64,000 nucleotides of DNA from Chloroflexota bacterium (GTDB lineage Bacteria > Chloroflexota > UBA11872 > VXOZ01), in NCBI GenBank assembly GCA_964291655.2, contig OZ219801.1:320001-384000 (forward strand), given 5' to 3'. The position numbers and the translations under genes were made by a program. Below, one piece after another: positions 1,079 to 59,012 of this stretch. The notes beneath the pieces are model-generated. The model saw nothing but the letters and a program-made list of their open reading frames with translations, did not search any database and was not told the origin of the DNA. The first letter of the stretch is position 1; each line of letters begins with the position of its first letter.

Positions 1079-1198
1079 CCTTGGGCAACGGCCTATTTTC
1101 CCACACAGTCGCCCGTGAAGTATCGTCGGTGCTGAGGGGCTTAACTACCGTGTTCGGGATGGGAACGGGTGTACCTCCCTCGCCTTGTCACCCAAGGA
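1079..1198 (-). rRNA. rrf: 5S rRNA
   Basis: Reverse complement contains conserved 5S motifs (ACACCCGTTCCCATCCCGAACACGG, GTTAAGC); terminal stem TCCTTGGG/CCCAAGGA. Confidence 0.95.
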
Positions 1199-1435
1199 AT
1201 TCTTGACTGGAATATGGAAACGTGTCGTAGATGCACTGCCACGCAATGTGCTGCGGCAAGCGCACATCAAGAAACGACGCGTTATGTCAATGTGCAGTCG
1301 TGAACAATGCGCAAGTCTTGATTGAGTGTGTTTGGCGTGCTTGCACGCCAAAGATAGCTGACCAAGGTGAGAGCATTCCCGCGCTTAGAGAATGACTCAC
1401 AGATTGCAGAACTCCAAATTTGCCAATTAGAAGCG

Positions 1436-4525
<3,090 letters not shown>

Positions 4526-4945: not shown

Positions 4946-6667
4946 CTACCGGCTGTAGCCGGAGTCCGGCCGCTCCTTTTGCGCGGTCTGCGTCAGGTAA
5001 TCCAGCAGGAAGCTGAAGTCCTTATACGACGTCAGATCGCCCAGCTGCCGGTCCAGCGACCAGAGTTCATCCAGCAAAATTGCCAGATCGCGGTCCACTG
5101 GGGACTCGGCAAAGTCGAGATTGCTGTAGCGGTCTGCTGCCAGAGCAACAATAGAACCGAATTGCAGGAATGCCGCAGCGCGGGCATTCTCCAGCGCGTC
5201 GCTCGTGCTCAGCAGTGTCGCGTGCTGGCGGTTGGACTCGCCGGTAGAAGGCGTCACCCAGCGTATCTCCACCTCACCGAGCCTGGCGGTATCCCGCCGG
5301 CCTGTGTCGGTGAGTTGCAGTTCAAAGAATACCGTAGTTGCGGCCCCCGCCGGAATCTCCGCGAACTCCTTGCGGGCCTCTGTGAAGGACTCGTCAGAAG
5401 TAGCGCGGTTCTCGTAGCCAACAATCCGCCACACCGCGACCATGTCCGGGTCCCAGGTCACCTGGGCGCGGGTCTGATCGGCAAAGGGTATAGAGAGTGC
5501 CAGCCAATTTTCGCGGCTGAAGGTCGCCCGCGCCTGCTCTACCGTGCTGAGATAGCGGTACCAGCCGTTGCCGTGCTGCGCCAATTGCTCCAGCAGGTAG
5601 TCGTTATAGTTCTCTATGCCGACGCCAATGGTGATGAGGCGCAACGGATTGGTGTCGTCACGGTCGTCCGCCGACTCCAAAATGGAGAACGGGTCGGTGG
5701 CGTCCACGTTCGCTACACCGTCCGACATGAGAATGATGTAGTTGTACGCATCGGGACGCTCCCGGCGAATGCGGTCGGCAAGCTGCACACCGAGGTCCAA
5801 CCCGGCTTGCACGTTCGTGGAACCATGCGGCTCCAACAGGTCGATTGACCGCCTGACGGCACGGTCATCCGGGTCCCGGTGATCAACCGTCAGGTTATCA
5901 AGCACGCGGGTGGTGAAGTGGACCACGGCAATTCGGTCCTGGCCGCGCAAGCTGCGCCGGATGCTCTCGGCTGCCTCGCGAGCTATAGCTACGCGATCTC
6001 CCTCACGCATCGAACCCGAAGCATCGAGCACCAGGGTTACGTTGAGCGGGGTGTCGTCGTACGCCAGGTCCGCGGCCTGGAAGGCAATGCGCGCCAGGTG
6101 CAGACCGCTATCCAAGGGGTGCTGGATGACGTCCGTGGCGATGGCAAAACTATCATCGCGCAGCGGCAGCGCGTAATCATAATTAAACGCGTTGATCCAC
6201 TCCTCAGCCCGCACAGAGTCCGGCTCTACGCGGTACGCCGCGTGCGCCCAATTCAGCGCCAGGTGGAACGACGTGCGGTCGGTATCCAAACTAAAGGTAG
6301 CGATCGCATCGCGTGCCGTAGTTACAAACGTGGCGCGCGGATAGTCCCTAAACGTAGTCGCACCTGCGGTCTGCTGCGGCGGCCGCACTGCCGGTTGGCT
6401 TGACGTAGATTGGGATGATTGACTTCGGGATGCTGGAGCTTCCTTGGCTTCTGCTTCGGCCTTTGGGAGGGGAACTAGCGTGGGTACTGACCGTGCGGAT
6501 TCCGCCGCCTTGGCTTCCTCTTTGGGCCTCTCCACTATGGCTTCAGACTCTTCTGCCGCCGGGGCTTCCATATCCGCGGCAGTTGACATCGCTGGCGCCG
6601 CCCCGCAGGCCGCGAGCAGGAGCACACCCACTAGCAACAAAAAAATTGTCCCGCAATACCTTTTCAT
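4946..6667 (-). CDS. YfbK-like von Willebrand factor A domain lipoprotein
   Basis: Lipobox LAAC, TFSLDTD motif, VRAEEWIN, MIDAS DASGSM, SDG.AN, C-terminal GYENR; RBS GGAGG before ATG 6667. Confidence 0.9.
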   Translation of the reverse strand: MKRYCGTIFLLLVGVLLLAACGAAPAMSTAADMEAPAAEESEAIVERPKEEAKAAESARSVPTLVPLPKAEAEAKEAPASRSQSSQSTSSQPAVRPPQQTAGATTFRDYPRATFVTTARDAIATFSLDTDRTSFHLALNWAHAAYRVEPDSVRAEEWINAFNYDYALPLRDDSFAIATDVIQHPLDSGLHLARIAFQAADLAYDDTPLNVTLVLDASGSMREGDRVAIAREAAESIRRSLRGQDRIAVVHFTTRVLDNLTVDHRDPDDRAVRRSIDLLEPHGSTNVQAGLDLGVQLADRIRRERPDAYNYIILMSDGVANVDATDPFSILESADDRDDTNPLRLITIGVGIENYNDYLLEQLAQHGNGWYRYLSTVEQARATFSRENWLALSIPFADQTRAQVTWDPDMVAVWRIVGYENRATSDESFTEARKEFAEIPAGAATTVFFELQLTDTGRRDTARLGEVEIRWVTPSTGESNRQHATLLSTSDALENARAAAFLQFGSIVALAADRYSNLDFAESPVDRDLAILLDELWSLDRQLGDLTSYKDFSFLLDYLTQTAQKERPDSGYSR

Positions 6668-7035
6668 GACACTATCCTCCGTGTTGAATGCCCATCGGTG
6701 GAGCCAAGCAAGTGTTCTGCCAGGCAAGAGATGTTCATCTCGTTAGTTGGGCCAACCACCTGTCAACTAAGTCTACTTCAATTCCGGCTAGCTCCTCCTT
6801 TGTGAACTTGCTAACGCCATTCGCTGGTTTCTCTACGTACCATAAGCCAATACAATCAATGCCAGCCTAAACACCACCACGGTCCTATTTCACTACCCAT
6901 GAGATGCTCGCGACTAAAACCCCTGCTGGCGCAGCGCTGCCCTATCCACCCCCGGACACCGATTGCTCTCGGCATCCAGGAGGTGACAACAGGCACCCAA
7001 GCACGGGCGGCCTTTGCAGAACACGCCGACGCTGG

Positions 7036-8657
7036 TTAGCGGCTATAGCCGGAAGACGGGTTTTCCTTCTCAGCTGTGCCTGCGAGGTAGTTCAACAAGA
7101 ACGAGAAGTCCTGGTACGAGGTGAGATCGCCCAACTGGCCGTCAAGCGCCTGCAACTCATCCTGCAGGACCAACAGATCACGGTGCACCGGGGATTCAGC
7201 AAAATCGAGATTGCTATAGCGGTCTGCCGCCAGCGCCACGATGGCGCCGAACCGCAGCAGCGCATCAGATTGGGCTTCCAGACTCGCATCGCTTGTACTC
7301 AGTAGCGTGGCGTGCTGGCGATTGGATTCGCCGGTGGCAGGAGTGACCCAGCGGATTTCCACCTGGCCAAGCTGGGAGGTATCCTCTCGCCCTGCTTCCG
7401 TGAGCTGTAACTCAAAGAAGACCGTGGTAGCGGTGCCAGCCGGAATCTCCGCAAACTCCTTGCGGGCCTCCGTGAACGACTCATCGGACGTTACGCGGTT
7501 CTCATAGCCCACGATGCGCCACACCTGCACCATCTCCGGGTCCCAGGTCACCTGGGCGCGGGTCTGGTCAGCGAACGGAATCGAGAGCGCCAGCCAGTTC
7601 TGCCGGCTGAAGGTCGCCCGAGCCTGCTCGACGGTACTGAGATAGCGGTACCAACCGTTACCGTTTTGCGCCAGTTGTTCCAGCAGGTAGTCGTTGAAAT
7701 TCTCAATGCCGACACAATGGTGATGAGGCGCAGCGGATTTGACGAATCGTAGTCTTCCGCCGTTTCCAAAATCGCGAATGGGTCGGTAGCATTTACGTTG
7801 GCAACGCCATCCGACATCAAGATCACGTAGTTGTACGAATCTGGACGTTCATCGCGGATGCGGTCGGCAAGCCGCACGCCGAGATTGAGACCGGCCTGCA
7901 CATTTGTAGACTGATGCGGGGCCAGCCGGCCGATAGACCAAGCGACGTTACTGTCGTTTGGCTCACTATGTTCAACGGTGTACTGGCTGATCACAAAGTC
8001 GGTGAAGTGCACTACAGCGATGCGGTCCTGGGCGCGCAGGCTGCGCCGGATGCTCTCGGCGGCCTCACGAGCGATTGCTACACGGTTGCCGCTGCTCATC
8101 GAACCCGATGCATCGAGCACGAGAGTCACGTTGACCGGCGTATCATCATGAACCAAATCTGCCGCCTGAAACGAGATGCGCGCAATGTGCAACTCGCTAT
8201 CCAATGGATGGGCCACCACGTCGCTCGTAATGGCAAAGCTATCTTCCCGCAGCGGAAAAGCGTAGTCGTAGTTGAACGTGTTGACCCACTCTTCAGCACG
8301 CACCGAATCCGGTTCCACTCGATAGTTCGATCTCGCCCAATTCAAGGCAAGGTGGAACGACGTGCGGTCGGTATCCAAGCTAAAGGTAGAGATTGCATCG
8401 CGGGCTGTGCTAACAAACGTGGCGCGCGGGTAGTCCTTGAACGTGGTCGCGCCCGCGATCTGCGGTCGGGGCTGGGCGGGCTGGGCGGTCGAAGGCCGCT
8501 CAGGTGCGGGCCGGGAAGGGGGCGCCTGCGCCCGCGGCGCTTCACTCTTTGCCTCCATGGCGGGGGCCGAACTTGAGGCGGTAGACATAGAACCGCATGC
8601 CCCAAGTAGGAGGATGCCCACAATCAGCAATGAAATAGTCCTAAGAGATCTCTTCAT
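7036..8657 (-). pseudogene. second YfbK-like VWA lipoprotein paralog with a 1-bp deletion frameshift near 7713
   Basis: ORFs 7548..8660 and 7036..7551 match the N- and C-terminal parts of the neighbouring paralog; GACACAATGG here versus GACGCCAATGG in the intact copy (could be a sequencing error). Confidence 0.8.
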
Positions 8658-9236
8658 CACACTTTCTCCTCGTTATCTTTCACCCCACGGCACTGTACCC
8701 ACAATACGTTAGAGACAAGTTACAACTGGGGACAATCTGTGGAGACTAGCTTCAGCACGAACGGTTCCCGCGAAAGGTGACGAGAGTGGATGATAAACGC
8801 CAATAAAGCCGGACACAGCCAGCTTTCACCGAGCATAGCCATCAATCCCGGACGGCATCTCCGCCCAAGACGCGGACTACATTTTGCTTCTCGGCATTCA
8901 CACTAGATGGATGGATCAACTTTCCATGAACAAGCGGGATATCACATCGTGCTTTAGGTAAGAAAAACGCGGTAATCTTCTGTGTTCAGGTCGCTAGGCC
9001 CTCCTCCTTCCATGCGTTGCATGGACACCATACGCGAGCACCACCCCTGGCTCGCACGCGCCCGCCAATTGCCTTTCAGGTACATCCTTACCCCAAAGAC
9101 GATCGTTACCGATTGGGGTGTACTGATAGACCTATTAGGCGTTTGGGGGATCGTAGTAACTATGGTAAGCGAAGTTCCGAGACTTGTCTAGACCTTTAAG
9201 GCCCTGGAATGCCTTGACAAGCCAAGAGTTGGGAGG

Positions 9237-11804: not shown

Positions 11805-12127
11805 CTTCTATTGGCTCCCTCATTCTTCATGGCGAAGCCGCGCAGTTGGGCCGCAGGAAACTCCGTTTGCCGGAATTGACCAATGCAAACGCAACGTCAT
11901 TGAACGCCGCGCACGAAACTCCTCTCGCCACAGCTTGGTGGTACTTTACTCAAGCTGGCTATGATGGGCAACAAGCAGGTCTGCGCGTGAAGGGGTGTCC
12001 GGAGTTCTTCTCGCCTGGAGGAAACTTTGCGAAACACCTTCCCCTTAATGGAAGAGGGCCGGGATAGGGGCGGAAAGAATTGACGAATAGCTCTGCACGG
12101 GCAATGCCGACGCCGAATGCCAATGCC

Positions 12128-12157
12128 TCTGGATTCCGGCTTTCGCCGGAATGACGG
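12128..12157. repeat. REP-like palindrome GGATTCCGGC-TTTC-GCCGGAATGAC
   Basis: Related copies at ~4824-4849, 19933-19960 and 20003-20056. Confidence 0.7.
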
Positions 12158-12269
12158 GTAATGCAAGGGTATCCGTCGAAATCCCTGAGAAACGGGGTGT
12201 CGGGGGCGTTTTCCTGACGGCTTAACACCAGAAGCCGCCTATACCGCCAACCGGAACCTCAGCGCGAAG

Positions 12270-12319
12270 GTTCTCGGCTTACTCAAGCTTGGTGGGCCTA
12301 TTTTGACGATAGACAGAAC
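12270..12319 (+). other. left attachment site (attL) of the ICE, crossover GG at 12294-12295
   Basis: Right arm TTGACGATAGACAGAAC (12303-12319) is the inverted repeat (15/17) of GTTCTGCCTACCGTCAA at attR (56887-56903); shared core TGGTGG. Confidence 0.85.
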
Positions 12320-12524
12320 CGTTTTCGAGTTGTGGCTGGGCGGCCGTTAGGCTTACCCAGCAGCGCCGTCCCGGGCTATGGCAACATATCCTGGGACGGC
12401 TGACTGCAATCGGAAACAAGAAGCCCAAGTCAAGCCCTTAACCTTGGCTGGAGGTGCCCGTTGATTTTATCCCGGGATGCGTTGTCATACCGGGACTGAT
12501 TTGTTCATGAGTCCCACACGTCAT

Positions 12525-12564
12525 AAATCCAGCCGCGAGCCGTTAGGCGGGTCACGGCTGGATT
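12525..12564 (-). terminator. hairpin after the MMPL gene
   Basis: AAATCCAGCCG...CGGCTGGATTT inverted repeat. Confidence 0.55.
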
Positions 12565-12597
12565 TGGTCCCATCCGTTGATACCTGACCAAGTGCAG

Positions 12598-15042
12598 CTA
12601 TTCGTCAAGCATCTCGGATGCGCGTTCGACGGCGCCACGAAGTCGGTAGTTCTGGTACGCCGCCCAGAGGATCATCGCCGGTGGCACGACCACGATGGCG
12701 GCGATCAGAGCATAGGCGATGGTAATTGCCGTCACGATTCCGAATTGCTGGAAAGGTGTCAGTGTGGAGAACACAAGCACGCCAAACCCCAGTGCCGTGG
12801 TGAGCGCCGAGCCGAGCAGCGCTGATCCGGTCGTACCGAGCGTGCGGCGCGCCGCACGCTCCGGATCGTGGGAGTGCGCGAACTCCTCCTCATAGCGATG
12901 AATGATGTGGATTGTATAGTCCACGCCGATGCCGATGGACAGCGCCGTGATGAGCGCCGTGATAACGTTGTAGGGAATGCCGACCAAAGACATGGTGCCG
13001 AGCACGCAGAACAGCACCATGACGATCGGAGCGACCGCTATGACACCAAGTTCCGCCCGCCTCTCGGTGATCCAGAAGAACATGGAGAGGATGATCAGGG
13101 CTGCGAGCACGGTGGTGGCTATGGCGGCCGTCTGGCTGCTGGTCATGGCATCCACCACCTCGAGACCAACGATCTCGCCGGACGTCGCGACGATCTCCTC
13201 ATCGCGTCCGAACCACAGCCCTTCAATGTCCGCCACCATACGCCCGGCCCGCTCCTGGTCGCGCGTCAGCGCGTCGAAGCGCAGGAGTATAGTGTCCGGG
13301 CCGTTGGGGTTGTCCACGGCCACACGTGCGAAGCCAGGGGGGTCCAGCTCCTCCAGCCGGTCGATGATCGCCTGCAACTGATGCGGGTCGAGCCGGAACT
13401 GGTCGGCCTCGGCGACCATGGCCTGCAACTGGGCATCGTAGGCGTCGCCCTGTGTGCCATCCTCGGTCATCCAGTCGAGCAGCAGCAGACCCAGGGAGGA
13501 TTGTATGCCGCCGACCACGCCTTCGGGCCGGCGCAGGTCATCGTTGAAAGCGTCGGTAAAGTCGAGCACGTTGCGGACCGTTCGATCACTGGTCACCTCG
13601 GACTCGATCAACACCTGTACCACGTCGGTCGACCCGCCGAAAGCCGCGTCAAGCGTGTTGATGTCTCGGATGGCATCGCCGCCTCTGGGCAGGAAGTCGC
13701 GCGAATCGAAGACCGTATCGATGTTGGTGGAGGCGACGCCCAGCACGACAGTGATGATGCCGATTGCCAGCAGGAACGGTGCAGGGCGACGGGCGAGTTG
13801 GCCGCCCAGCGCCTCTACGGCAGCACCCACGCCGGGGATCGCACCGGAGATCGGTCGCGCCGGAGGCAGGGAGCCGCGCTTTTCGCGCCAGCGATCGAGC
13901 AGCGTACGAGCGGAGGTGAGCAGCACCAGCATTACGACGAGCCCCGCGACCACACCGACTCCTGCAACGACCCCAAAGTCGCCGTTGGCTGGAATCGGCG
14001 ACGAGAGGTTCGTCAGGAAGGAGACGACTGTCGTAACCGCGGCGAGAGAGAGGGGGATGAGCACCGACCGCAGTCCCAACCGCGCGGCAACCCGGACCTC
14101 ATGGCCTTCACCACGCTGCTCCCGATACAGACCCACCGTCTGGATCGCGTAATCGACCACCAGGCCGATCAGCATGATCGGCACCATCGTCGTCAGCGTG
14201 TTTGGAGCGCCTATCAGCCCGACACCGTTGGGTCCCAGCCATCCCTGGGCGCCTATCACCCAGATGATCGTGAGCACAAGGCCCAGCAGCGAGAGCAGCA
14301 GGTCAACGAGCGAGCGCGTGAACAGCAACAGCAGTCCACCTATCACGGCCAGGGCTATAACCATTAACACGACCATGTCCGAACCGGTCGCTTGCTCGGT
14401 CTCTTCAGCCGTGGTGGCCTGAGAAATGCTTCCGCCATCGAGCGGACCAGAACTCGCCTCAACGATTTCGCGGATCGCCAACTCGGCCTCGTTAAGGAAC
14501 TCCTCGTCATCCTTCGAGTCCCCGTCTCCATCCCCGTCCTCTAGCAGTCGCACATTAGCGATCGCAACTCCAGTGCCGTCGGCGTCGGTGCCGACCAGCC
14601 GCCCAATGGGCAGTTGCGCAGCCGCCTGGTCAATCTCCTGTTGAGAGAGCAAAACAAAGTCGTCGGCGCCTAGGGCTCTCCCAATCAATAGCGTTGGCGC
14701 AATGACCGGGTCGGGCTGGGCCAGAAAGGGAACAACACGCGGTTCGGTCATCACCCCATCCAGAACGCTGTCGATCTGGGCCAGACCTTGAGGTGTTAGC
14801 GCATCGCCCCGAAAGATCAACGTCACCGAGACTGTGTCCAGGGAGCTTCCGAACAGCTCGTCGATCGTTTCCGTGGCGGCGGCCACCCTGCTGTCCTCGG
14901 GCAGAAACACGGAGTTGTCTGCCTGGGGAGCCAGCCTGGTGATGCCAACTCCCAACGCAACCGTGAGGGCCAACAGCACCAACAGCGTCACAATCGGCCG
15001 GGCGGTGACAAGCCCGCTGAGTACGTCAAGAGTCTTAGTCAT
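12598..15042 (-). CDS. MMPL/RND family transporter
   Basis: 814 aa with two repeats of a soluble loop plus TM bundle; GLVVDYAI and GIGVDYTIH motifs. Confidence 0.9.
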   Translation of the reverse strand: MTKTLDVLSGLVTARPIVTLLVLLALTVALGVGITRLAPQADNSVFLPEDSRVAAATETIDELFGSSLDTVSVTLIFRGDALTPQGLAQIDSVLDGVMTEPRVVPFLAQPDPVIAPTLLIGRALGADDFVLLSQQEIDQAAAQLPIGRLVGTDADGTGVAIANVRLLEDGDGDGDSKDDEEFLNEAELAIREIVEASSGPLDGGSISQATTAEETEQATGSDMVVLMVIALAVIGGLLLLFTRSLVDLLLSLLGLVLTIIWVIGAQGWLGPNGVGLIGAPNTLTTMVPIMLIGLVVDYAIQTVGLYREQRGEGHEVRVAARLGLRSVLIPLSLAAVTTVVSFLTNLSSPIPANGDFGVVAGVGVVAGLVVMLVLLTSARTLLDRWREKRGSLPPARPISGAIPGVGAAVEALGGQLARRPAPFLLAIGIITVVLGVASTNIDTVFDSRDFLPRGGDAIRDINTLDAAFGGSTDVVQVLIESEVTSDRTVRNVLDFTDAFNDDLRRPEGVVGGIQSSLGLLLLDWMTEDGTQGDAYDAQLQAMVAEADQFRLDPHQLQAIIDRLEELDPPGFARVAVDNPNGPDTILLRFDALTRDQERAGRMVADIEGLWFGRDEEIVATSGEIVGLEVVDAMTSSQTAAIATTVLAALIILSMFFWITERRAELGVIAVAPIVMVLFCVLGTMSLVGIPYNVITALITALSIGIGVDYTIHIIHRYEEEFAHSHDPERAARRTLGTTGSALLGSALTTALGFGVLVFSTLTPFQQFGIVTAITIAYALIAAIVVVPPAMILWAAYQNYRLRGAVERASEMLDE

Positions 15043-15339
15043 ATACGATGTCTTGTACCTCGTCCTGTTTATGAGTGGCTCAATGATACCCCATTCACCG
15101 GTTAGTTCAAAATCTCTGAGTCTGGTATTCTCTTCCTTATTTAATCATAAAACCAGCGCAGCTAGTGGATATGATTCGAAGAATTGCCCATCGTCGATGC
15201 GAGTTGCCGAAGAGTGGGATATCTTCCGTCCACTTCCCGCATAGACCAACGTCTTCGACTTGATGACTTGCACTCCATTGGAGTGAGGTCTGAAGGGTCC
15301 CTGTGTCGAGCGCCGCCGAGCATGATTCTATGAGGAGAG

Positions 15340-16083
15340 ATGAACGTGAATAGGACAGAAAATCTCATGCAAACCGACACTTTGGATCGAGAGGCCATGC
15401 TGGACAGGATCGAACGAAGTACTGATCTGCCGTTGATGATCCTCTCCACCGCGATGATCCCAATGCTCGCAGGGTTGCTGTTCTGGGAGCCGGGTCCCGT
15501 ACCGCGGGGCGCGGTCCTTGCCCTCTACCTGTTCATCTGGGCCATCTTCGCGGTAGAACTGGCGGCAAGGGTAATAGTCGCTCCCCAGCGTGCACGATTC
15601 ATACGGCGTAACTGGTTCGATGTGCTCGTTGTGCTGCTCCCGGCCGCTCGTCCGCTGAGGATTCCCCTGATCGTCCTCTATGGCTCGCACGCCTATGGCC
15701 GGGCGTTGCGGTTCGCTCACGTCGATTACTTGGCAGGTTACGCCATCAGCCTCGTACTGCTAATCTCCACTATCGTCACCTCGGTCGAGCGCGGGCACGA
15801 CTCACCGGTCGATTCCTTCCCGGATGCCCTTTGGTGGTCTATTGCCACTGTGACGACGGTTGGCTACGGCGACGTCGTCCCCGTGACAACGGCTGGGCGC
15901 GCGTTTGCGTATGTCCTGATGGTGGGAGGCATAGGACTCTTCGGCGCGTTCACGGCCAATCTAGCATCGATCCTGGCGAGACGCAAAGACCCGGTCCCGG
16001 CTGGCCTCGCATCGCTTGCCGACGAGATTCGTGAACTGCGCGAGGAAATCAAACAGTTTCGGGAGCAGGATGTGTCACGCTAG
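15340..16083 (+). CDS. potassium channel family protein
   Basis: Selectivity filter TTVGYGD preceded by the DALWW pore helix; N-terminal TM segments including RPLR. Confidence 0.92.
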   Translation: MNVNRTENLMQTDTLDREAMLDRIERSTDLPLMILSTAMIPMLAGLLFWEPGPVPRGAVLALYLFIWAIFAVELAARVIVAPQRARFIRRNWFDVLVVLLPAARPLRIPLIVLYGSHAYGRALRFAHVDYLAGYAISLVLLISTIVTSVERGHDSPVDSFPDALWWSIATVTTVGYGDVVPVTTAGRAFAYVLMVGGIGLFGAFTANLASILARRKDPVPAGLASLADEIRELREEIKQFREQDVSR

Positions 16084-16227
16084 CTGCCAGGTCGCCGGGG
16101 CGCACGCTGCCTGGCGCAGTCGCTCCGGTTCAAGAGGGCTCCGGGAATACTGTTCTTGCGGCACGGCAGACCCACCGTAGTGAGACTGATGTTGCTGACC
16201 ATAGTGCTGGCATTTGCAAGCTAATCG

Positions 16228-16770
16228 TTACTTGTAGTAGACAGCGATGTATACATGAAACAGACCCAGCACCACCGTGACCGCCGCCAGCGAGACGTGG
16301 GCAAGCCCCCACGATACAGTGTAGTATCGATTGTTGAATCGGATGCCCAGAGGGCTCGCGGCGCCAACAAGCATATTGCCCAGGAAGACCCAACTGAGCG
16401 CAGCCAGGTAGCCGTAGCCTACCTCCACGCTGTGCACGTAGAAGAGGAGCGGAACGAGGGATCCGGTCCGCTGGTGCCATGACAGCAGTCTCCGCAGATT
16501 CCGTCGCTTGAGGCGTGAGTAGAAGAGCCACCACTGCCATCCCACGTAGGAAATCAGCCCGGCGCCGGTTACTTACTTGAACACGTCAACCGACTGGAGA
16601 TTGGCGAGCCACTCCCATCGCAGCCCCCCCCCCCCCCCGACATCCTGCGCCACGTAGAGGAGCACACCCACGACGCCCGCCGCTCGCCACCTCCAGACAG
16701 CCACCGGCAACACGAGGGGGCGGCTCGTACGGCCACGCGCGCGGGACCCGCTTCGTCCGGCAGCTTCCAT
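16228..16770 (-). pseudogene. small multi-TM membrane protein with an in-frame TAA at 16573-16575 and a G15 tract
   Basis: ORFs 16573..16770 and 16228..16545 share one frame separated by a single stop; C15 on the plus strand at 16624-16638. Confidence 0.55.
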
Positions 16771-16801
16771 TAGCGCCTCACTCCGTCTATAGGCTCAACC
16801 G

Positions 16802-17380
16802 TCACTTCACCTCCTCGCCACTTTGCGCCTCCAGCAGCAGGCGAAGGGTTTCGGCTGATGGAAGGAAATAACCGTCGCCGGGCCACTTCTCCCCCACAAG
16901 CGGAGGGTCGGCAAAGGTGGCAACCTTATTCAAGTAGTGCTCATAGGCTTCTCGGACGCTCCGGCGCAGGGCCTGCACCAGAGCCAACGCTTCGGCCATG
17001 CCTATTTCGCTCTCAGGGTATGACCACGTGGTTGCGCCCATCACGTCGCCCACTTGCCAGTCCGTCTTGGGCGAGTCCGGGTCGCTGTTGTGGCAGATCA
17101 CACAAGCCTCGGTCGGGGCGATGTCCGAGAACATGGCGGTCTGGAATCCGAGCTCCCTGTCCAGGAAGAACTGCGGCTCACCCGTGCGTCTGATTTCTTC
17201 GAAGTGCTCGGTCTGCTGGCCGGTGAACCTGTTGGCGTCATTGATCTGGAAGTCCGAGCCCAGGAAGAGATACAGGGGTACTGAACTACGTCGGAGACCC
17301 TCGGCCGTCTCCCGCAGGAAAAGGGCTGGCAGTGGCCCGGCGTCGAGTCCCTGGTCATGCCAATCCTCGTCAAATCGAAT
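16802..17380 (-). pseudogene. 5'-truncated DUF3365/Tll0287-like c-type heme protein
   Basis: Frame reads FDEDW..GPLPALFLRE...LFLGSDF...CVICH...DVMGA and begins abruptly at the att-like site at 17381. Confidence 0.75.
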
Positions 17381-17779
17381 CCACCAAACTGGACAAAATC
17401 AAGAACTTTCTCCATCACCTTTACTTTGGTAGTGTGACCGCCGGGCGGAGTCGGAGCCAAGAGCGCCGGAAAAGAGCGGCCATCGGCCTGGCAAGAAATG
17501 AGAAAGCTCCTGCCAGGACGCGGGGGCTTTTCTTTTGTGCTGAACCCTCCTAGTGAAAGGCCGTAGCAACAGGGCGCGAGGTTCCCAACGGGTATACTCA
17601 CTGGTATTGGGGTGGGGTTTCGTAATTTGCCGCCATGTCGTGTTAGTCGGCTGCGCCCACAGAGGGTCGTTTTGTGCGTGGTGTTGCAAGGCCAATCACA
17701 ACTTTCGCGTAGGATGTTATCGCGCCAATATTAAAGAGGGGTAGCCATTACAGTGCCTCAAGAAGGATTGACTACTACC

Positions 17780-18003
17780 CAGGGTCTTTCGATTATTGCT
17801 GAGAAACGCAAAGCGAGAGAATTTGGGGAATATAGGGGAATAGGAGTAAGATGGGGAGAGTGAGGAAGTGGGTGTGTGAAATGAGGGGTGAAAGAGAGTA
17901 AAGTGAGGGAACTGTCGATACTTGAGGTAATGTGGAAGTTGCCCGACCCACGCAGTGGACACGGCCGGCGGCATCCCTTGGGGGCGATTCTGGGGTTGTT
18001 GGG
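17780..18003 (+). mobile_element. ISAs1-family left-end remnant
   Basis: Starts CAGGGTC; encodes LPDPRSGHGRRHPLGAILGL, the N-terminal motif of ISAs1 transposases; fused in frame to the next gene. Confidence 0.6.
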
Positions 18004-18028
18004 CGGCTGGCGCATCCCCAGAGGCTCG

Positions 18029-19255
18029 ATGCGGGGCGTGCTGCTGGTCGTGATTGCCGCCCTGGCCGTCGGCGCCGGGACCCTCGCGGCCTGCGGCGAC
18101 GAAGAGAGGGCGCCCCTCAAGATCGGCGCGCTGCTGGTGAACAGTGAGGCGCAAACGGAGACGGCCCTCGACCGCCTGCGCTCCTTCAAACTGGCCATCA
18201 AGCACGTCAACCAGGCCGGCGGCGTGTTCGGACAACAGGTGGAAATCGCGGAAGGCGACACCCTCAACCCTGCCGAGGAGGCTCGACGCCTCATTGAGGA
18301 TGAGGGCGTTCATGCCATCGTCGGACCCAACTCCAGCGCTCACTCGCTCATGGTGATTGAGGTCGCGGCGCCGGCGGGGGTGCTGGTGATCAGTTCTTCG
18401 GCCTCTTCCCCGCTGCTCACCGCCAACGAGGATCGCGACCTTTTCTTCCGCACGGTCCTCTCCGACGCCGCCCAGGGGCCGGCGCTGGCGCAGCTCACGC
18501 GCGAACGGGGCTTCGAGAACGTGGGAGTCATCTACCGGGACGACGCCTGGGGACAGGGTCTGGTGGAGGCCTTCCGGCAGGCGTGGACAGGCGGCATCGT
18601 GGCCGTGAGATCCTCGACCGAGCTTCGTGAGAGCTACCTCGACCTCATCGAGGAGAGCGCGCGCGACGAAGCCAAGGCCCTCGTCCTGCTCACCTTCGGG
18701 GCCGAGGCCGAGATCATCCTCCAGGAGGCGCTCGACAGCGGCCTCTACGAACAGTTCCTCTTCGGCGACGCGCTCAGGCGGGCCAGCCTGGCGGAGGCCG
18801 TGGGCGGGGGAAGGCTGGCCGGCATGTACGGCACCGTCAGCGGCCCATCCCATGAGAACGCCCCCACCCGGATGTGGGACGAGGCGTTCCATAACGAGTA
18901 CGGGAGGGGCACGGAGGCTACCTACGTGAGGGAGACCTACGACGCTGCCATCGCCATCGCCTTGGCGGCGGAGGCGGCAGGCGACGCCGAAGGGGTGGTC
19001 ATTCGCGACGCGCTGCGGCGTATCGGCTCGGCGCCCGGCGAACAAGTTCTGCCCGGCGCGGAGGGTATCTCCCGCGCCCTGAGCACCATCCGTGACGGCG
19101 GAGATGTGGACTACGAAGGCGGCTCCGTCTCCATGGACTGGGACGAGTACGGCGACCTTCGGCGAGGCTACATCGGCATCTGGCGGTTCACGGCCGACGG
19201 CGACATTGAGGACGTAGACGTCATCGCCTACGAGGCTGAACCGCAGCGGAAGTAA
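18029..19255 (+). CDS. branched-chain amino acid-type ABC transporter substrate-binding lipoprotein
   Basis: Lipobox LAAC, KIGAL, AIVGP.SS, FFRT..SD..QG, YDAA motifs (LivJ-like). Confidence 0.88.
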   Translation: MRGVLLVVIAALAVGAGTLAACGDEERAPLKIGALLVNSEAQTETALDRLRSFKLAIKHVNQAGGVFGQQVEIAEGDTLNPAEEARRLIEDEGVHAIVGPNSSAHSLMVIEVAAPAGVLVISSSASSPLLTANEDRDLFFRTVLSDAAQGPALAQLTRERGFENVGVIYRDDAWGQGLVEAFRQAWTGGIVAVRSSTELRESYLDLIEESARDEAKALVLLTFGAEAEIILQEALDSGLYEQFLFGDALRRASLAEAVGGGRLAGMYGTVSGPSHENAPTRMWDEAFHNEYGRGTEATYVRETYDAAIAIALAAEAAGDAEGVVIRDALRRIGSAPGEQVLPGAEGISRALSTIRDGGDVDYEGGSVSMDWDEYGDLRRGYIGIWRFTADGDIEDVDVIAYEAEPQRK

Positions 19256-19364
19256 TCGACGACCGGAGTCCGATAATGGGGATCCTCAACTGAAGCCCAC
19301 CACAGCCGGGCGCGACGAGCCGCCCGGCTCCTTCCCAAGGTTCATTTAGAGCCAATTTCAGCCG

Positions 19365-19834
19365 TTACATACCCCTTTCAGGGGGTCCCCCTGGCGGGTT
19401 GTGATAGCCAGGCTTGATGCGCTTCAGACGGGCGGCTTTGCTGGAGCGTACCGGCTCCAATCCCTCCAGGACACTTTCGTCCCATAGGGCCAAAGGAGTT
19501 TCCCCAGCCTGTTTCAGTTCATCCAGGGCCTCATCGGACCGGTACCAGAGGAACCGCTCCAACAGGGTGTGAGACCATTGGGGAGAGCGCAATAAATTGC
19601 TCAGCCGCTTGGTGCCCGCCGGAGCTCTATCAGGAGATAGAATGTGGGCCCTCGGCTCCCTCACGAGCAGTCCTGACCGGCTGTGGCGCAGGCGGACCAT
19701 GGCGGTCAGGGCCAGGAAAAAGGTGCGCACCAGACGCCGGTCCAGCTGATCATCCAGCCACCCCTCCAGCGGCCCGATGAACATTTCCAACAAATTCGCT
19801 ACCGGTTGGGCTTGCCTCCGCCCCTCACCAGGCC
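19365..19834 (-). pseudogene. IS4-like transposase fragment (N-terminal half)
   Basis: LDRRLVRTF...APAGTKRLSNLL...LWDESV; truncated at both ends; probable 5' end displaced to 25126-25185. Confidence 0.65.
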
Positions 19835-20084
19835 CCACCACATTTGACGAAATCAAGAACTTTCACCATTTGCTTCCGGTTGGAGCCAGGGTAGTCGCGG
19901 GGCAAGGGACTGGTTGATAGGCCAAGGGGGTCCGTCATTCCGGCCTTGAGCCGGAATCCAGAGTCTCCCGACAGGCCAGATTTCCAAGAGCAAGGGATTA
20001 TGTGGATTCCGGCCCCGTATTGGGGTACGGGGTGACGTTCTTTCGCCGGAATGACGAGGCGGACGCTCTCCCCCATCCTAAAGC

Positions 20085-20158
20085 CGCGGGGGCCCGGACG
20101 ACTTCGCCCGGGCCCCCGCCCTCTGCTCCGTCCGGCTCGCTTGGGGGCGAGCCGGACG
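20085..20158 (-). terminator. two GC-rich hairpins after the adhesin gene
   Basis: GCGGGGGCCCGG...CCGGGCCCCCGC and GTCCGGCTCGC...GCGAGCCGGAC. Confidence 0.5.
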
Positions 20159-20173
20159 TAATGTTTCAGCGCG

Positions 20174-23100
20174 TCAGCCGCACTTGACGAGGACGTACTC
20201 GCCCTTGCGGTCGTCGTTCTTGTCTACGGCATCACGGCCGTCGTTGTGGTCGAGGAATTCCTCCACACCGCTGTGCTGACCAACGAGGATGCTGCCCCAG
20301 ACCCTGATGTCGCTGGTGCCGCCATCGCAGCCCTGATCGATGATCCTGGAGCCGGACCGGTCCAGGTCATTGGGGGCTTCGGCGTCAAACACGACTGCCC
20401 AGTTGTTCCATGCGCTGGACCTAGAATCTGTGTCCAGTTGGAGGGTGACGTCGGTCCACACCTTCTTGGCGAGGTGGACCCTCACCCGGCCGTTCTCCTG
20501 TTGCGAATACACGGTGAAGACGACGGCATCGTCCTCGACGACCTTGAGGATCGGGTTCGGCTTGGTCGACTCCGTGTCCTTGACCCGGAACTGGTAGTAG
20601 CGCTCGGGGTGGTACACGAAGTTGTCGTCGTGGGAGTTGAACGTCAACGGCATCCGCTTCCCGGTAGCATGATCCTTCCACGCGTCGCCTCCGAAACAGT
20701 TGTATCCGCCAGGCGTAAAGCATTCGGCGAAATTGCCCGTGTAGAGGTGCCACTCGGACTCTTCCCGGATCGCCAGCGCGCGGTGGCCGACCTCCTGATC
20801 CAGATTTTGCCAGGCCGACCATTGGGTGCCGTCGTCATTGGTCGCCGTGCGCACCTGGAGCGCGACCCGATTATTGCCGCCCCTCGTGCCGCTGTTCAGG
20901 ATCAGGTCGAACTGGTCACCTTCCTTGATCGTGGTGACACGGCCGATAGGGGTGTCGGCAGTGTTCTGACCGTGCACAACCGTCAACCAGACATCGGCGG
21001 TGATTGTGGTATTAGTCGCCCGCCAGCCATTCGTGTTCCTGGTGGCGTGGTACATGCCGGTGTCTGTCATTGTGATCGTACTGACTTCGGTGGTATGCAC
21101 ATCCGGAGCGTCCCAGCCGGCGCCGTCGGTCTCGTGCCAGACCAGCTTGACCGTGCCGTTGCTCCCGTTGGAGCCGTCTGATAGCCAGTCCCACGAGACC
21201 TCACAGGTGGCCGTCCGGTTAGCTGTGTTTCCGCCCGCGTTTGCACCCTTGTTGAAGGCGCAGACGCTGGGCTGCCAGTAGACGGCATGCCCGTGCTCCA
21301 GGTACATGCGCGCCGCCGAGGCTCTGCCGCCCTTGCGGATGTCCTCCTCCCGCGGGGCGAGATAGCCCCTCAGATGCTCACCCGACAGGGTGATGGTCTG
21401 CGTGCCGCTGGTGCCCTCCTTGATGGTGAACGTCGATCCGTCGCCATCGCCGTCCGCGTCGTCACCGAGTTTGCCGGTATTCCCGGTGACGGTGACGGTG
21501 GCGATGCTGTCCCGGAAGTTGATATTCAGGAGGTCGTAGGTGCCGACCACGGAGGTGCCGCTGTCGCCCACGTCGTGGTAGACCAGCTTGGCGCCGTTGA
21601 GGGTCGTGCCGGGAGTCCCGTCGTCGGTCAGGTTGTATGTGATCTGGGCCCGACGGTAATTCCTGTTGTTGAACGTCAGGTAGGGGTTAGAGCAGTTGTT
21701 GTCCAACCAGCCCTGGTAGGTGCCATGCGGACTGCTGGTGTTGCCCCAGGTGTTCGTGGCCACCCTGGTGGGGATGGTTTGGCCACCGGTCTGCGGCTCG
21801 ATGGTGATGTAGCCGCGCATCCGGCAATTGCCAGTGCCGACCTGGGGCTTGTTGACCCAGACGCGCACCTCGATCGTGCCCGATGTGCCTTCCTTCAGCC
21901 TGACATCGGCGATGAAGGCATCGGTCGGACCATTCGGACTGATCGGGTGGGGGACTACGGTGCCATTGTAGGAGAGCGCCGACTGCGCGCCGACGCAGAA
22001 GGTGCCATCGGACGACAGGCGCGTGCCCGGGTTGCACTGTGCTTCGACGCTGGCGGTGGCGGTGACGCTGTTCGTGCCGTCGCTGGCCGTGACGGTCATC
22101 GTCGCCGTCCCGGTGCTGGTGTTCTTGATCGAAATGAGCTCGTCCCACTGGCTAATCGTCGCGATGGGGTTGTCGAGCGTCACCGTAAAGGTCAGCTCGG
22201 CATCCGTCTCGTGGCCGAAGTAATCGGTCAGCGTGAGCTGCGTCGGCGAGAGGCTGGTGGAAAGGTTGATGGACGTGGGCAACGGGTTGTCCAGCGTCGG
22301 CATTGGCGCGGGCGGCGGGCCGTTGTGGAATATATCGGTCAGCGCCGGCGCGATTTCGTCCCAGATGTCGGTCCAGCTCCGCGCCGCCAAAGCTCGCGCT
22401 CTCCACGCGGGGTACGGCTCAATCGACTCCTTCTCTACGTCCTGCCCGAGCGCGAGCAGGACGCTGTCGTAGAGGTCGGTATGCGAGGAGAATTGGCCAA
22501 AGAGGGGATGGTTGCGCTCGGCCTCCACCTTGGCGATCAGGTCCTGGTAGGGAGCCCAGAACTCGGTGTAGGTCGGGGTAGCGCCCGAACCCGGCGCGTC
22601 ATCGTCCGTCACGATGACCGTCGCCGCGCCCTGCGTCGCCGAGACGGTGAAGCGCGGGTTGTCGCGCGGGTCCGGCTGCAGCGTCAGTGTCAGAGAGCCA
22701 TCGGACTCGTCGCGGTCGTCGTCCAGCGTGGACACGGTGATCGTGTTGCTTCCGGACGTCCCAATCACCTCCACGATCTGCCCGTCGCCGGAGGTGAAGC
22801 GGCCGTCCTGCGTCACCATGGCGACGAAGGTGATGGCCATAGTGCCGGTCGGCGCGGGGTTGGCGGTCACGGTGAAGGTGGCAGAGCCGCCCTCGGTGAC
22901 CGCTCCGCCGCCCACAACGCTGATCTCAGGCTTCGCAGCGGGAGCCGGCGGGTCATCATCGTCCGCCACGGTTACGGTGGCCGCACCGCCCGACGTGGAC
23001 ACGGTGTAGCCGGTTCCGGTATTCAGGGTGGCGGTTACCGACCCGTCGGCCTCGTCCACGCTGTCGTCACTGGTGGCGACGGTCAGCGTGTAGCTGCCGG

Positions 23101-24637
23101 AGGTCGGGATGCTCACCGTCTGCGCCCCGGTGGTTGCGCCGTAGTCCCCGCTCTGCGAGACCGCGACGGTCACGTCCAGAGAGGCCGACGGCGCCGGGCT
23201 GGCGCTGACGGTGAAGGTGGCGTCGCCGCCCTCGGTGACCGCGCTGCCGCCCACAACGCTGATCACAGGCTTCGCAGGGGGAGCCGGTGTCGGCGTGGGT
23301 GTCGGTGTCGGTGTGGGTGTCGGTGTCGGCTGCTGCGAGTCGCCGTCGGTGGAGCCTTCGCACTGCTCCAGGGCTTCCAGAGTGCGCGCCGTGCGGTCCC
23401 AGCGGGTGTTTCCAAGCCAGTTGGCGATCTCCCACGCCAGACTTGCTGGCATCGGAGTAAGACCTGTGCTGGTATCGACACCGAGCGCTTCCAGCACCCG
23501 GTTCCAGCGTTTGACGCCCGCCGCCGCCCTGGTGGGGTCGAGAGCGTCCCGCCAGCCGGTTACCTCGTCCGCCGTTACGGCGTCGTCTGGCAGGTTGCAG
23601 ACTTGCTCCGTCTGCTGAGCCGGCGGGTCGTCATCATCGGACACCGCCGCCGTGGCCGCGCCGTTGCTCGACGACACGGTGTAGCCCGTTCCGCCGTTGA
23701 CCGTGGCCGTCACCGACCCGTCGGCCTCGTCGTCGCTGTCACCGGTGGTCGCAACGGTCAGCGTGTAACTCCCGCCGGTCGGGATGCTCACCGTCCGCGC
23801 CCCGGTGGTAACACCGAAGTCCCCGCTCTGGGTAATGCTCACGCTCACCGACAGGGCCGCGTGAGGTGCCGGGCTGGCGGTGATGGTGAAGCTGGCGTTA
23901 CTACCCTCGGTTATATCGCCATCGCTGGCGATGCTGATTTCCGGCACGTCGTCATCCGACACTGCCACCGTGGCCGTCCCGTTGGACGTGGACACGGTGT
24001 AGCCTGTTCCGGTATTCAGGGTGGCGGTTACCGACCCGTCGGCCTCGTCGGCGTTGTCGTTCGTGGTAGAAACGGTCAGCGTGTAGCTGCCGGAAGTCGG
24101 GATGCTCACCGTCTGCGCCCCGGTGGTTGCGCCGTAGTCCCCGCTCTGCGAGACCGCGACGGTCACGTCTAGAGAGGCCGCCGGCGCCGGGCTGGCGCTG
24201 ACGGTGAAGGTGGCGTCGCTGCCCTCGGTTATATCGCCAGAGCTGGCGATACTGATTTCCGGGGCGGTCAGGCACTTCTCCAGGGCTTCCAGGGTTCGGG
24301 CGGTGCGGTCCCAGCGGGTGTTTCCAAGCCAGTTGGCGACCTCCCACGCCAGGCTTGCTGGCATCGGAGTAAGACCTGTGCCGGTGTCAACGCCTAACGC
24401 TTCAAGTACGCGGTTCCAGCGCTTGACGCCCGCGGCGGCTCTGATGGGGTCGAGAGCGTCGCGCCAGCCGGTTACCTCGTCCGCCGTGATGGCGTCGTCC
24501 GGCAGATAAGAGGCGCAAGCGGTCTCATCGCCCTGGGCGTTGGCGACGGATTCATTGTTCAGGAGCAGTAGCGAAATTGCCACGAAGGACAAGACCGCCA
24601 GACCGTAGAGGGGGAGCTGCCACCGTGAAATCTTCAT
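20174..24637 (-). CDS. large secreted Calx-beta repeat protein (putative adhesin)
   Basis: 1487 aa; signal peptide; four Calx-beta-like repeats (TEG..ATFTV...DEADGSVT...DDD); two copies of a Trp-rich ~75 aa domain; PT linker. Confidence 0.85.
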   Translation of the reverse strand: MKISRWQLPLYGLAVLSFVAISLLLLNNESVANAQGDETACASYLPDDAITADEVTGWRDALDPIRAAAGVKRWNRVLEALGVDTGTGLTPMPASLAWEVANWLGNTRWDRTARTLEALEKCLTAPEISIASSGDITEGSDATFTVSASPAPAASLDVTVAVSQSGDYGATTGAQTVSIPTSGSYTLTVSTTNDNADEADGSVTATLNTGTGYTVSTSNGTATVAVSDDDVPEISIASDGDITEGSNASFTITASPAPHAALSVSVSITQSGDFGVTTGARTVSIPTGGSYTLTVATTGDSDDEADGSVTATVNGGTGYTVSSSNGAATAAVSDDDDPPAQQTEQVCNLPDDAVTADEVTGWRDALDPTRAAAGVKRWNRVLEALGVDTSTGLTPMPASLAWEIANWLGNTRWDRTARTLEALEQCEGSTDGDSQQPTPTPTPTPTPTPTPAPPAKPVISVVGGSAVTEGGDATFTVSASPAPSASLDVTVAVSQSGDYGATTGAQTVSIPTSGSYTLTVATSDDSVDEADGSVTATLNTGTGYTVSTSGGAATVTVADDDDPPAPAAKPEISVVGGGAVTEGGSATFTVTANPAPTGTMAITFVAMVTQDGRFTSGDGQIVEVIGTSGSNTITVSTLDDDRDESDGSLTLTLQPDPRDNPRFTVSATQGAATVIVTDDDAPGSGATPTYTEFWAPYQDLIAKVEAERNHPLFGQFSSHTDLYDSVLLALGQDVEKESIEPYPAWRARALAARSWTDIWDEIAPALTDIFHNGPPPAPMPTLDNPLPTSINLSTSLSPTQLTLTDYFGHETDAELTFTVTLDNPIATISQWDELISIKNTSTGTATMTVTASDGTNSVTATASVEAQCNPGTRLSSDGTFCVGAQSALSYNGTVVPHPISPNGPTDAFIADVRLKEGTSGTIEVRVWVNKPQVGTGNCRMRGYITIEPQTGGQTIPTRVATNTWGNTSSPHGTYQGWLDNNCSNPYLTFNNRNYRRAQITYNLTDDGTPGTTLNGAKLVYHDVGDSGTSVVGTYDLLNINFRDSIATVTVTGNTGKLGDDADGDGDGSTFTIKEGTSGTQTITLSGEHLRGYLAPREEDIRKGGRASAARMYLEHGHAVYWQPSVCAFNKGANAGGNTANRTATCEVSWDWLSDGSNGSNGTVKLVWHETDGAGWDAPDVHTTEVSTITMTDTGMYHATRNTNGWRATNTTITADVWLTVVHGQNTADTPIGRVTTIKEGDQFDLILNSGTRGGNNRVALQVRTATNDDGTQWSAWQNLDQEVGHRALAIREESEWHLYTGNFAECFTPGGYNCFGGDAWKDHATGKRMPLTFNSHDDNFVYHPERYYQFRVKDTESTKPNPILKVVEDDAVVFTVYSQQENGRVRVHLAKKVWTDVTLQLDTDSRSSAWNNWAVVFDAEAPNDLDRSGSRIIDQGCDGGTSDIRVWGSILVGQHSGVEEFLDHNDGRDAVDKNDDRKGEYVLVKCG

Positions 24638-25296
24638 GACGCACCTCCCTCAGCGTCGCGGTCCGGGCGTGGGGTAAGTCTAGGTGTATGCAGGTTCATA
24701 GTAAGCCACCTCCGGTTCAGGTTTGAGTTCCTGTCGCAGCCAACCCTGGCTCTCCATCGGGTCATCAACGTCCTCCTTATCGAATAGCATTCTAATCAAG
24801 CGCCACGGGGATCCCCTGGCATCCGGTCGCCTCGTCGCGCGACCATTAGAGTATAGCAGGTTTCCAGCGCACTGACCAAACTGCGCGCCGATTCGGGGAG
24901 TAGTTTGGGCAGTGTATCATTGGTCAGAATCTTGCACTCTCCAGATTAGGATACGATCAATACATAACCAATGTCAATACAACGCAATATCATATAGATG
25001 GAGTCTTTGCTTACGCTCAGGGGGGCAGCCACGCCTGTGATATCGACCCAGCCTTCTTCAGACGTCATGTCCTGCTAACTCCTTACAAGCATAGGCTTGC
25101 GGGCTTCTACCGTCAATCTACAGCCATTCGGAAACTCTAGACATGAGTTCAGTTTTTCGGGCAACAAAAAAGGCTTGCACACATGGCCGCGAGCGGCAGC
25201 GCGCCCAAGCCCTAAACGCAAAAGGGGCCGCATACATGACCGACCAGAGAGAGGGCATCGCTCCATAGGCGATGCCCTCTCCCCTTGTGTGTTTGC

Positions 25297-33088: not shown

Positions 33089-33298
33089 AGCTTTCGCCTC
33101 CTTGATTCCTGTAGATGAAGAGTTGTCCGGACCGCTCATGCGGCCGCCTTTGCTTCAGCGTTCGTTACTTTCGTCTCATCCCCGGCCTTCGCGTAATTAG
33201 GTAGGGACGGCGCCGCCAATGGCCGAATTGCTCCGGCTGGTTTGCGCCATCCCTCCTACCGAACCGGACGTGCCACTTTCGCGGCATCCGGCTCTCCG

Positions 33299-35008: not shown

Positions 35009-35198
35009 ACATCCCTCCTCTGGCTTAGTTCGCATGTGTTCTGCACTCGTCTAACTGCCCTCCTTCGCCATGTGGCCGGCTTTCCCGACCTCGGACTACT
35101 ACGAGGGCTCTGCCCCACGCCCGGCATTGGCCGCAAGCTGGCCTACCCCGGCTTGGCTCCTTGTTGACCCGCAAGGTCTGGTGTGCCACCATCCCGAT

Positions 35199-46134: not shown

Positions 46135-46154
46135 AGGAAAAGGAACCTATCGAA

Positions 46155-48398: not shown

Positions 48399-48423
48399 AG
48401 ATTCCTTAAAGAGGAGAAGAAAA

Positions 48424-58737: not shown

Positions 58738-59012
58738 CAGCACTGCAAGAGGACCGACATCTCCGTGACGGAGACCTTTGCATAAACCTTGCCGGGAGGG
58801 GAATGTCCCCTCTTCCGCCGGAGACCCTTGCAATACCCATGTGGAAGGAAGATTGTCCCCTCTCCCCTGACGGGAGAGGGTTAGGGTGAGAGCGAAAGTG
58901 CTCTGAGCACGAGCATAGTCTTGCCCGGATTGGTTCTACAATGATTGACTGTACAAGTTTTACGATTAGCGAAGCAGATAAGACCCCTCACCCCGGCCCT
59001 CTCCCCAAGGAG

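Follow-up and report, generated by a model that had tools for sequence, protein, structure and literature searches.

The window analysed here is a stretch of 64,000 nt from the genome of a Chloroflexota bacterium (GenBank assembly GCA_964291655.2; contig OZ219801.1, positions 320,001–384,000, forward strand), and this report concerns an island that lies in it between a chromosomal recombination half-site and the 3′ end of a tRNA-Ala(GGC) gene (Table 1). The island is laid out as a cargo arm (~12.3–25.2 kb), a backbone of conjugation and replication genes (~25.3–55 kb) and, at its right end, the gene for a large serine recombinase (LSR). Two copies of a left-arm motif, hereafter denoted sites B and C (at 17381 and 19835, respectively), lie within the cargo arm, each adjoining a truncated gene. 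A first, sequence-only reading had taken the interval 12270–25125 for an array of integrase-less cassettes moved in trans by LSRs. In our analysis this interval is better explained as the cargo end of one 44.6-kb conjugative island, inserted by a serine recombinase at the end of the tRNA gene and carrying the internal motif copies as relic half-sites; to this account, taken jointly, we assign a probability of about 0.68.

Boundaries and attachment sites of the island

The boundaries were established by comparing 30 kb around the tRNA-Ala(GGC) gene in nine genomes of the same genus, all of which have the right flank of the locus in common. In two of the nine (G003 and G004 in our numbering) the site is empty: the equivalent of window positions 12185/12199–12298 is joined straight to that of 56907 onward, with the left half-site kept and placed directly against the tRNA. 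The whole of 12296–56912 is therefore one insertion, and the arm at 12270–12295, which had been listed as an orphan cassette arm, is native chromosome and forms the chromosomal half of attL of the entire island. The native arm is also present in G005 and G007 (loci L027–L030), where it is followed by one copy of tRNA-Ala(GGC), 1.7 kb of further sequence, and a second copy of the tRNA gene bearing the normal right flank. The other five genomes have unrelated sequence over the 0.8–2 kb adjoining the tRNA.

At the left junction the chromosomal arm is followed by a right-type arm (12296–12319) that was missing from the earlier list of arms; at the right junction the island's own left-type arm, located in the last codons of the LSR gene, forms attR together with the tRNA. 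Fusing attR's left half with attL's right half yields exactly the palindromic attP skeleton, with its crossover GG, that the sequence-only reading had reconstructed, and the two arms (56887–56910 and the reverse complement of 12296–12319) agree at 19 of 24 positions, both 5-nt boxes included. Only TGGTGG is common to the two island junctions, i.e. the insertion has a 2-bp crossover and no long direct repeat. The left end of the island is conserved at 83–95% identity in G073, G041, G048 and G063, and the elements with this left end (G041, G048, G073, G020) have little in common with the backbone beyond the recombinase. The true ends of the island and both of its att sites are now fixed.

Inside the insertion lie genes for TraC/VirB4-like (45954–48398), TrwB/TraG-like coupling (48325–50946), Replic_Relax (50943–52604) and TrbL (42676–43656) proteins, some with scores just above the cut-offs; given this gene set in inserted DNA, the island is therefore an integrative conjugative element (ICE). 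Primase, Rad52, RadC, methyltransferase and helicase genes are also present in the island.

Recombinase and tRNA target

The LSR gene is the only full-length copy in the genome, and its reading frame extends through the island's left-type arm into the tRNA gene. Read on the opposite strand, TGGTGG is the CC-A-CCA end of the tRNA; the crossover GG corresponds to acceptor positions 71–72, and the last four bases of the tRNA (ACCA) are supplied by the island's arm. This arrangement indicates that the LSR targets the 3′ end of the tRNA gene and rebuilds its ACCA end. Relatives of the enzyme adjoin genes for tRNA-Ile, tRNA-Ala(CGC), tRNA-Asn, tRNA-Glu and tRNA-Val. In PMC5704250 (Figure 1), gene ends are given as the usual target of tyrosine recombinases, and sites within genes as usual for serine recombinases; literature listings contained no report of a serine recombinase directed at tRNA 3′ ends, although listings are weak evidence of absence.

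Table 1. Positions of the island, its attachment-site halves, the internal motif copies and the neighbouring genes in the window
Feature	Position	Strand	Basis and remarks
Chromosomal left half-site (B arm), ending TGGTGG; crossover GG 12294–12295	12237–12295	+	Native, downstream of tRNA-Ala(GGC); profile match E 2.4e-6
Island right-type arm (P′), N7-TTGAC-N7-AGAAC	12296–12319	+	Exact match to full right-arm pattern; with B arm forms attL
Integrative conjugative element, ~44.6 kb	12296–56912	+	No counterpart at the G003/G004 empty sites; conjugation genes inside
MMPL/RND-type transporter gene, cargo	12598–15042	−	Pfam MMPL, E 3e-32
Tll0287-like gene, 5′-truncated, cut at GG	16823–17380	−	81% amino-acid identity to residues 105–303 of the G064 homologue frame
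Internal motif copy, site B; lone left-type half-site	17381–17443	−	Profile E 2.4e-12; exact match to class pattern
Periplasmic solute-binding protein gene, between the two internal motif copies	17888–19255	+	Pfam Peripla_BP_6, E 2e-37
Claimed right-type arm, chance level	19285–19298	−	Scored as 19273–19298: rank 46/11,823, 0.3 bits
Insertion sequence transposase fragment (DDE_Tnp_1), residues ~1–156 of 443, 8-residue internal gap	19381–19840	−	88% identity to P0002
Internal motif copy, site C; lone left-type half-site	19835–19897	−	Profile E 3e-11; one mismatch to class pattern
1487-aa repetitive protein gene, cargo	20174–24637	−	Internal repeats
Claimed right-type arm, without outer box	25107–25125	−	Scored as 25100–25125: rank 801/11,823, −9.2 bits
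LSR reading frame; Resolvase, Recombinase and zinc-ribbon domains	55330–57024	+	Pfam PF00239, PF07508, PF13408, all above cut-offs
Island left-type arm (P) with crossover GG (56911–56912)	56887–56912	+	Exact pattern match; in last codons of LSR; with tRNA forms attR
tRNA-Ala(GGC)	56907–56982	−	ARAGORN, Rfam

The left-arm motif in this genome and across the class

The skeleton GTTCT-N7-GTCAA-N7-GG, with at most one mismatch, occurs five times in the window against an expectation of 0.28, a number reached in none of 100 shuffles; the claimed left-type arms are thus real, and all three read as first written. Across the genome (3.47 Mb) there are 24 matches, of which the 19 outside the window are about as many as the background would give. 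A TGGTGG ending is found in only four of all 24, namely those at 12270(+), 17381(−), 19835(−) and 56887(+); the fifth match in the window, at 41780, has no further likeness to the others and looks like chance. The longer pattern reported for the three left arms was likewise borne out: a profile built from 17 motif copies, all from other genomes, picks exactly 12237–12295, site B and site C out of the whole genome, the next best match having an E value of 1.7. The left arm of the genome's only LSR (56887) is of another kind and goes undetected by this profile at E values up to 10. The identification of the arms as serine-recombinase half-sites with a crossover GG agrees with the rebuilt attP skeleton.

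The motif is widespread in the class. Pieces of 121 nt around 17381 and 19835 match 40 and 27 of 98 class genomes, respectively, with the matches stopping at the GG, and a 26-nt pattern (at most two mismatches) is found in 43 of the 98, with 102 copies in all; a reversed control pattern is found in none. In a sample of 30 loci, one per genome, the motif GG is followed by a called tRNA gene at 18 (Ala-CGC, Ala-GGC, Val-CAC, Val-GAC, Ile, Glu, Leu, Met and Tyr), by a tRNA-like sequence at two, by a right-type arm at four and by other or truncated sequence at six. The attL of a related element in G020 and G041 consists of the consensus motif, the GG, and a right arm resembling the one described here; the motif is therefore the half of this recombinase family's target that lies away from the tRNA. 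As such a half-site, ~30–66 nt in length, it belongs to the target sites of this class, and small insertions without an integrase have it as their right end. Usually situated immediately 3′ of tRNA genes, of which at least nine species are represented, the motif can serve as a marker with which to find islands of this kind, and what is left of them, in related genomes, and it might explain how one recombinase family uses many tRNA genes.

The motif can also be translated, as ..Y-x4-N-x3-K-V-L-D-F-V-x-x-G-G with partly synonymous variation, and the arm matches might accordingly be coincidence, or coding sequence such as a peptide (KVLDFV..GG) conserved among paralogous genes. All copies can indeed be read in the one frame, as K-V-L-D-F-V-x-x-G-G, and their variation falls partly at third codon positions. 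However, the open frames upstream are short and unrelated (median 35.5 codons in 24 copies), conservation ends at the GG, most copies adjoin tRNA genes, and the control yields no match in 98 genomes; this explanation is very improbable. Two further ideas were discarded. The arms as ordinary coding sequence, in the form of winged-helix-like N-termini, were dropped on recognising TGGTGG as the reverse complement of the tRNA 3′ end, and the idea that an intact recombinase gene ends in the motif was rejected, since no such gene lies upstream in 19 sampled loci and the open frames there are short.

A second type of recombinase has the C-terminus ..VLDFVQSG, which is encoded by a 19-nt core in common with the motif, and it is the only type found with this core. 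At two loci, in G038 (L003) and G064 (contig C8, L084), two LSR genes converge on one palindromic att site, the last codons of each gene making up one arm.

Right-type arms

A right-arm matrix, derived from nine arms of this type in other genomes, was applied to each of the 11,823 GG positions. The right arm of attL (12294–12319) gives the top match at 24.9 bits, followed by a next best match of 10.1 bits. The right-type arms that had been claimed at 19285 and 25107 do not stand out from the remaining positions (Table 1), and the pattern GG-N7-TTGAS is present 19 times where 18.6 occurrences are expected. As read from the sequence, the former lies beside a terminator-like hairpin following the binding-protein gene; the latter has an 11-nt string in common with right arms of G041. 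The scans proposed earlier thus gave, for the left arm, three isolated matches in the genome and, for the right arm, 12294–12319 only. With the claimed right arms at chance level, no cassette in this region is bounded on both sides.

Internal half-sites and their truncated neighbours

Sites B and C are direct to each other on the minus strand, 2,454 nt apart, with one intact gene between them, and are inverted relative to attL and attR, which lie on the plus strand. At each of them the neighbouring gene is cut at the GG, as had been noticed at the outset, with the loss of ~104 codons at site B and ~125 nt at site C, and the earlier view that the two arms mark recombination junctions holds. Both junctions are absent from all 97 other class genomes searched.

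At site B, the Tll0287-like gene of G064 runs unbroken through the breakpoint, while the copy in the window starts right after the GG, at residue 105. The first ~104 codons were found nowhere in the genome by tblastn with the G064 homologue, and a reciprocal junction for this site was rejected on that basis. The right side of site B carries TTGAC at half-site spacing but is native gene sequence, ranking 1071 of 11,823 in the right-arm matrix.

At site C, the TGGTGG overlaps the transposase start (M-V-G), and the transposase fragment begins at the start codon. Full copies of this insertion sequence (IS) in public Dehalococcoidia genomes have ~124–125 nt of IS end before the ATG, and the fragment is without this left end; a blastn search with the full IS matched only 19381–19840 in the genome, with no sign of the missing half. 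The right side of site C ranks 2745 of 11,823. Insertion of 19837–25124 as a unit into the IS was considered and rejected, as the flank from 25126 onward, which would then be the absent 5′ end of the IS, aligns with that end at a score of only 16, against a mean of 15.9 for 300 random windows.

Both junctions could have arisen without a site-specific recombinase, by deletions at short direct repeats or at random that happened to end at the motif. At 19835 the end of the motif and the start of the IS have TGGTGG(GG) in common, and these six to eight bases would suffice for slippage or microhomology. At 17381, however, two common bases at most are available and the right side bears TTGAC at half-site spacing; moreover, such deletions would have placed two independent junctions within 0–2 nt of the crossover dinucleotide of attL and attR. 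We consider this origin unlikely, although it is the strongest of the alternatives weighed here.

Integrase-less units in related genomes

Recombinase-less units between arms of this kind do exist at tRNA genes in relatives. In G012, of the same genus, a 4.3-kb unit encoding a P450 fusion and an acyltransferase fills the interval from the native arm to tRNA-Ala(GGC) exactly; its bounds are a motif copy and a right arm, the latter being the final 21 codons of a second-type recombinase gene in decay. In G021, next to tRNA-Ala(CGC), three motif copies in direct orientation have two single-gene modules between them; no other copy of these modules was found in the 98 class genomes (E 1e-20). In G044 (contig C11, L118–L120) tRNA-Val(GAC) is the site of two tandem elements, each bearing a recombinase gene, with the inner recombinase gene followed by a 48-nt copy of the 3′ part of the tRNA and then by the next element.

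These arrangements bear on the proposal that the cargo arm is itself an array of integrase-less cassettes, each with a right- and a left-type arm and each still open to excision and movement in trans by a serine recombinase, in the manner of cis-mobilizable elements (CIMEs) or of the staphylococcal cassette chromosome (SCC). The two internal motif copies are real, direct to each other and enclose one intact gene; the G012 unit occupies the same tRNA; and the G021 modules, the tandem elements of G044 and the precedent in Dehalococcoides (PMC3146451) all favour the idea. On the other hand, the right arms fail both the pattern-count and the matrix tests, both internal sites are half-sites fused to truncated genes and inverted with respect to the island's own sites, and no reciprocal junction was found. 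The single LSR has a left arm of another kind, the G021 modules are confined to one genome, and the unit 17407–19834 has only distant gene-level relatives in the class. We regard the array as improbable, and its premise, that non-autonomous cassettes built this cargo arm, finds no support in the window on the points just given. Of the earlier claims, the existence of integrase-less units between such arms is upheld for G012 and G021, while none bounded on both sides is present in the window. For the units of the window, no second context and no presence/absence difference ending at the sites was found among the 98 class genomes; such a case occurs at the same tRNA in G012, with other genes.

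A broader version is scarcely more probable than the array and remains distinctly doubtful: the motif and the tRNA-targeting serine recombinases may form a class-wide platform for gene accretion, in which recombinase-less units of one to a few genes, such as the G012 P450 unit and the G021 modules, are moved in trans at many tRNA genes, the two internal arms marking such units captured in a conjugative element. If so, units captured in this way would become transmissible between cells.

History of the internal half-sites

Under the favoured account, an inserted conjugative island with relic half-sites in its cargo, the internal motif copies were most likely left behind, as scars, by past accretion and deletion. 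The half-sites would have come with cargo assembled elsewhere by accretion of motif-bearing units, and each would then have been trimmed by a deletion running from a true site to a look-alike; the TTGAC present at the right spacing in the native gene at site B fits such a look-alike. The deletions may have been carried out by a serine recombinase or, at 19835, by recombination across the common TGGTGG. Lacking a right half and a partner, sites B and C would presumably no longer be substrates.

Several points weigh against this history. Simple tandem accretion would have left sites B and C in the orientation of attL and attR, whereas they are inverted; nor is it likely that the cargo arm was inverted as a whole, because the MMPL gene keeps its position next to a right arm in G077 (73% DNA identity to a gene ~1.6 kb from a motif-GG-right-arm junction). 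Serine integrases are reported to be unable to recombine pairings other than attP × attB without a further factor (PMC3783163), which makes a deletion by the recombinase at a look-alike site an assumption of this history. Short-read contigs break at the 30-mer 17381–17410 in all four sequencing runs and leave the linkage across site B unconfirmed. With unrelated tRNA-adjacent DNA in five of the nine same-genus loci, the ancestral state of the site rests on four genomes. Finally, the motif could be a remnant of the 3′ end of a recombinase gene or a genuine half of the target: its translation looks protein-like, yet the sampled loci have no recombinase gene upstream.

Comparison with known systems

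The closest precedent is provided by the ssrA islands of Dehalococcoides, which are described by McMurdie et al. (2011; PMC3146451) as tandem islands associated with the serine recombinase DsiB; about half are without integration genes, and these are proposed to be cis-mobilizable via accretion. In common with the island described here, they have a CcrB-like LSR and are inserted at the 3′ end of a tRNA-like gene ending in CCACCA. The differences are that here a range of ordinary tRNA genes is targeted rather than a single tmRNA gene, that the repeat here is flank outside the tRNA and not a 20-bp copy of the gene end, and that the element here has its own conjugation genes, with the recombinase gene placed against the tRNA and reading into it. 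Integrase-less islands in tandem at a serine-recombinase site have thus already been described in Dehalococcoides (PMC3146451), and the idea is not new in kind.

Accretion of CIMEs and ICEs, exemplified by ICESt1/ICESt3 of streptococci, is outlined in PMC5704250 as integration, decay into an element without an integrase but with its att sites, and new integration at the att site next to the target gene, which yields composite islands able to move together; the best-studied cases there involve tyrosine recombinases and longer direct repeats. The arrangements in G012, G021 and G044 correspond to the pattern described for CIME accretion and for the ssrA islands (PMC5704250, PMC3146451). The units in the window fall outside the definition of a CIME. 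Where a CIME has two full att sites per unit, the internal sites keep one half only, fused to truncated genes, and 12294–12319 is the sole right arm; where its sites are direct with respect to those of the mobilizing element, sites B and C, on the minus strand, point the opposite way to attL and attR.

In SCCmec, serine recombinases (CcrAB or CcrC) insert the element at the 3′ end of a conserved gene (rlmH/orfX). Composite SCC islands include pseudo-SCC units, without recombinase genes, between repeated site sequences, and SCC elements are not known to carry conjugation genes. The LSR of the island matches the CcrB profile with an E value of 9e-41, a score far below the family cut-off, and so is not a Ccr family member by curated cut-offs; the target is a tRNA gene instead of rlmH/orfX, and the island carries conjugation genes.

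The likeness to an integron is limited to the broad notion that a recombination site can acquire gene units. The arms here are serine-recombinase half-sites and not hairpins, and the units are not uniformly oriented; no tyrosine IntI integrase, attI, attC hairpins or common promoter were seen, no search having been aimed at IntI or attC. The window gives no positive evidence for a new serine-recombinase gene-capture system, and the concept has precedents.

Cargo genes, sequencing contigs and other observations

The solute-binding protein gene between sites B and C has only relatives of 64–69% DNA identity among those found in the class. The 1487-aa protein has no Pfam or NCBIfam match; contig depth over its gene is far above that of the organism, indicating that relatives of this gene are abundant in the samples. 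A group II intron lies in the island backbone at 33196–35035 (−), recognised by its reverse transcriptase/maturase and an Rfam domain match.

The sequencing data comprised assembled contigs only, from four runs (X1–X4) of one study. Contigs cross attL in X1–X3 and site 19835 in X1 and X2. No joint at the proposed arm pairs was present among 15 of 32 contig joints, although contigs cannot show absence. The 30-mer at which contigs end or begin exactly in every run is motif sequence, which points to a second context in the samples, in another organism or another arrangement. One X4 contig (record 26; 3,875 nt) fits the window from 15597 down to 12291 and continues with 568 bases unlike the window; it could be the junction of an excised circle, or the same island at another site or another insertion site, and is only a hint.

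Palindromic repeat elements, with translations VIPAK.. and ..ESRNPE.., lie at 11897–12228 and 19900–20076, just outside the attL arm and the 19835 arm, respectively, and have many further copies on contig C2. They are the cause of a contig joint that links 12157 to 20003, has 27 letters on its shorter side and falls within the repeats. To the right of the tRNA, 58870–61545 is dense in direct and inverted repeats (50–300 nt, 85–98% identity) and resembles one small mobile element in several copies. Left of the island, two adjacent paralogous genes (4946–6727 and 7036–8660), 2.09 kb apart with 71–76% DNA identity, vary in arrangement and copy number among the same-genus genomes, and the 5S and 23S rRNA genes are located at 1080–4525 (−), ~8 kb from the island.

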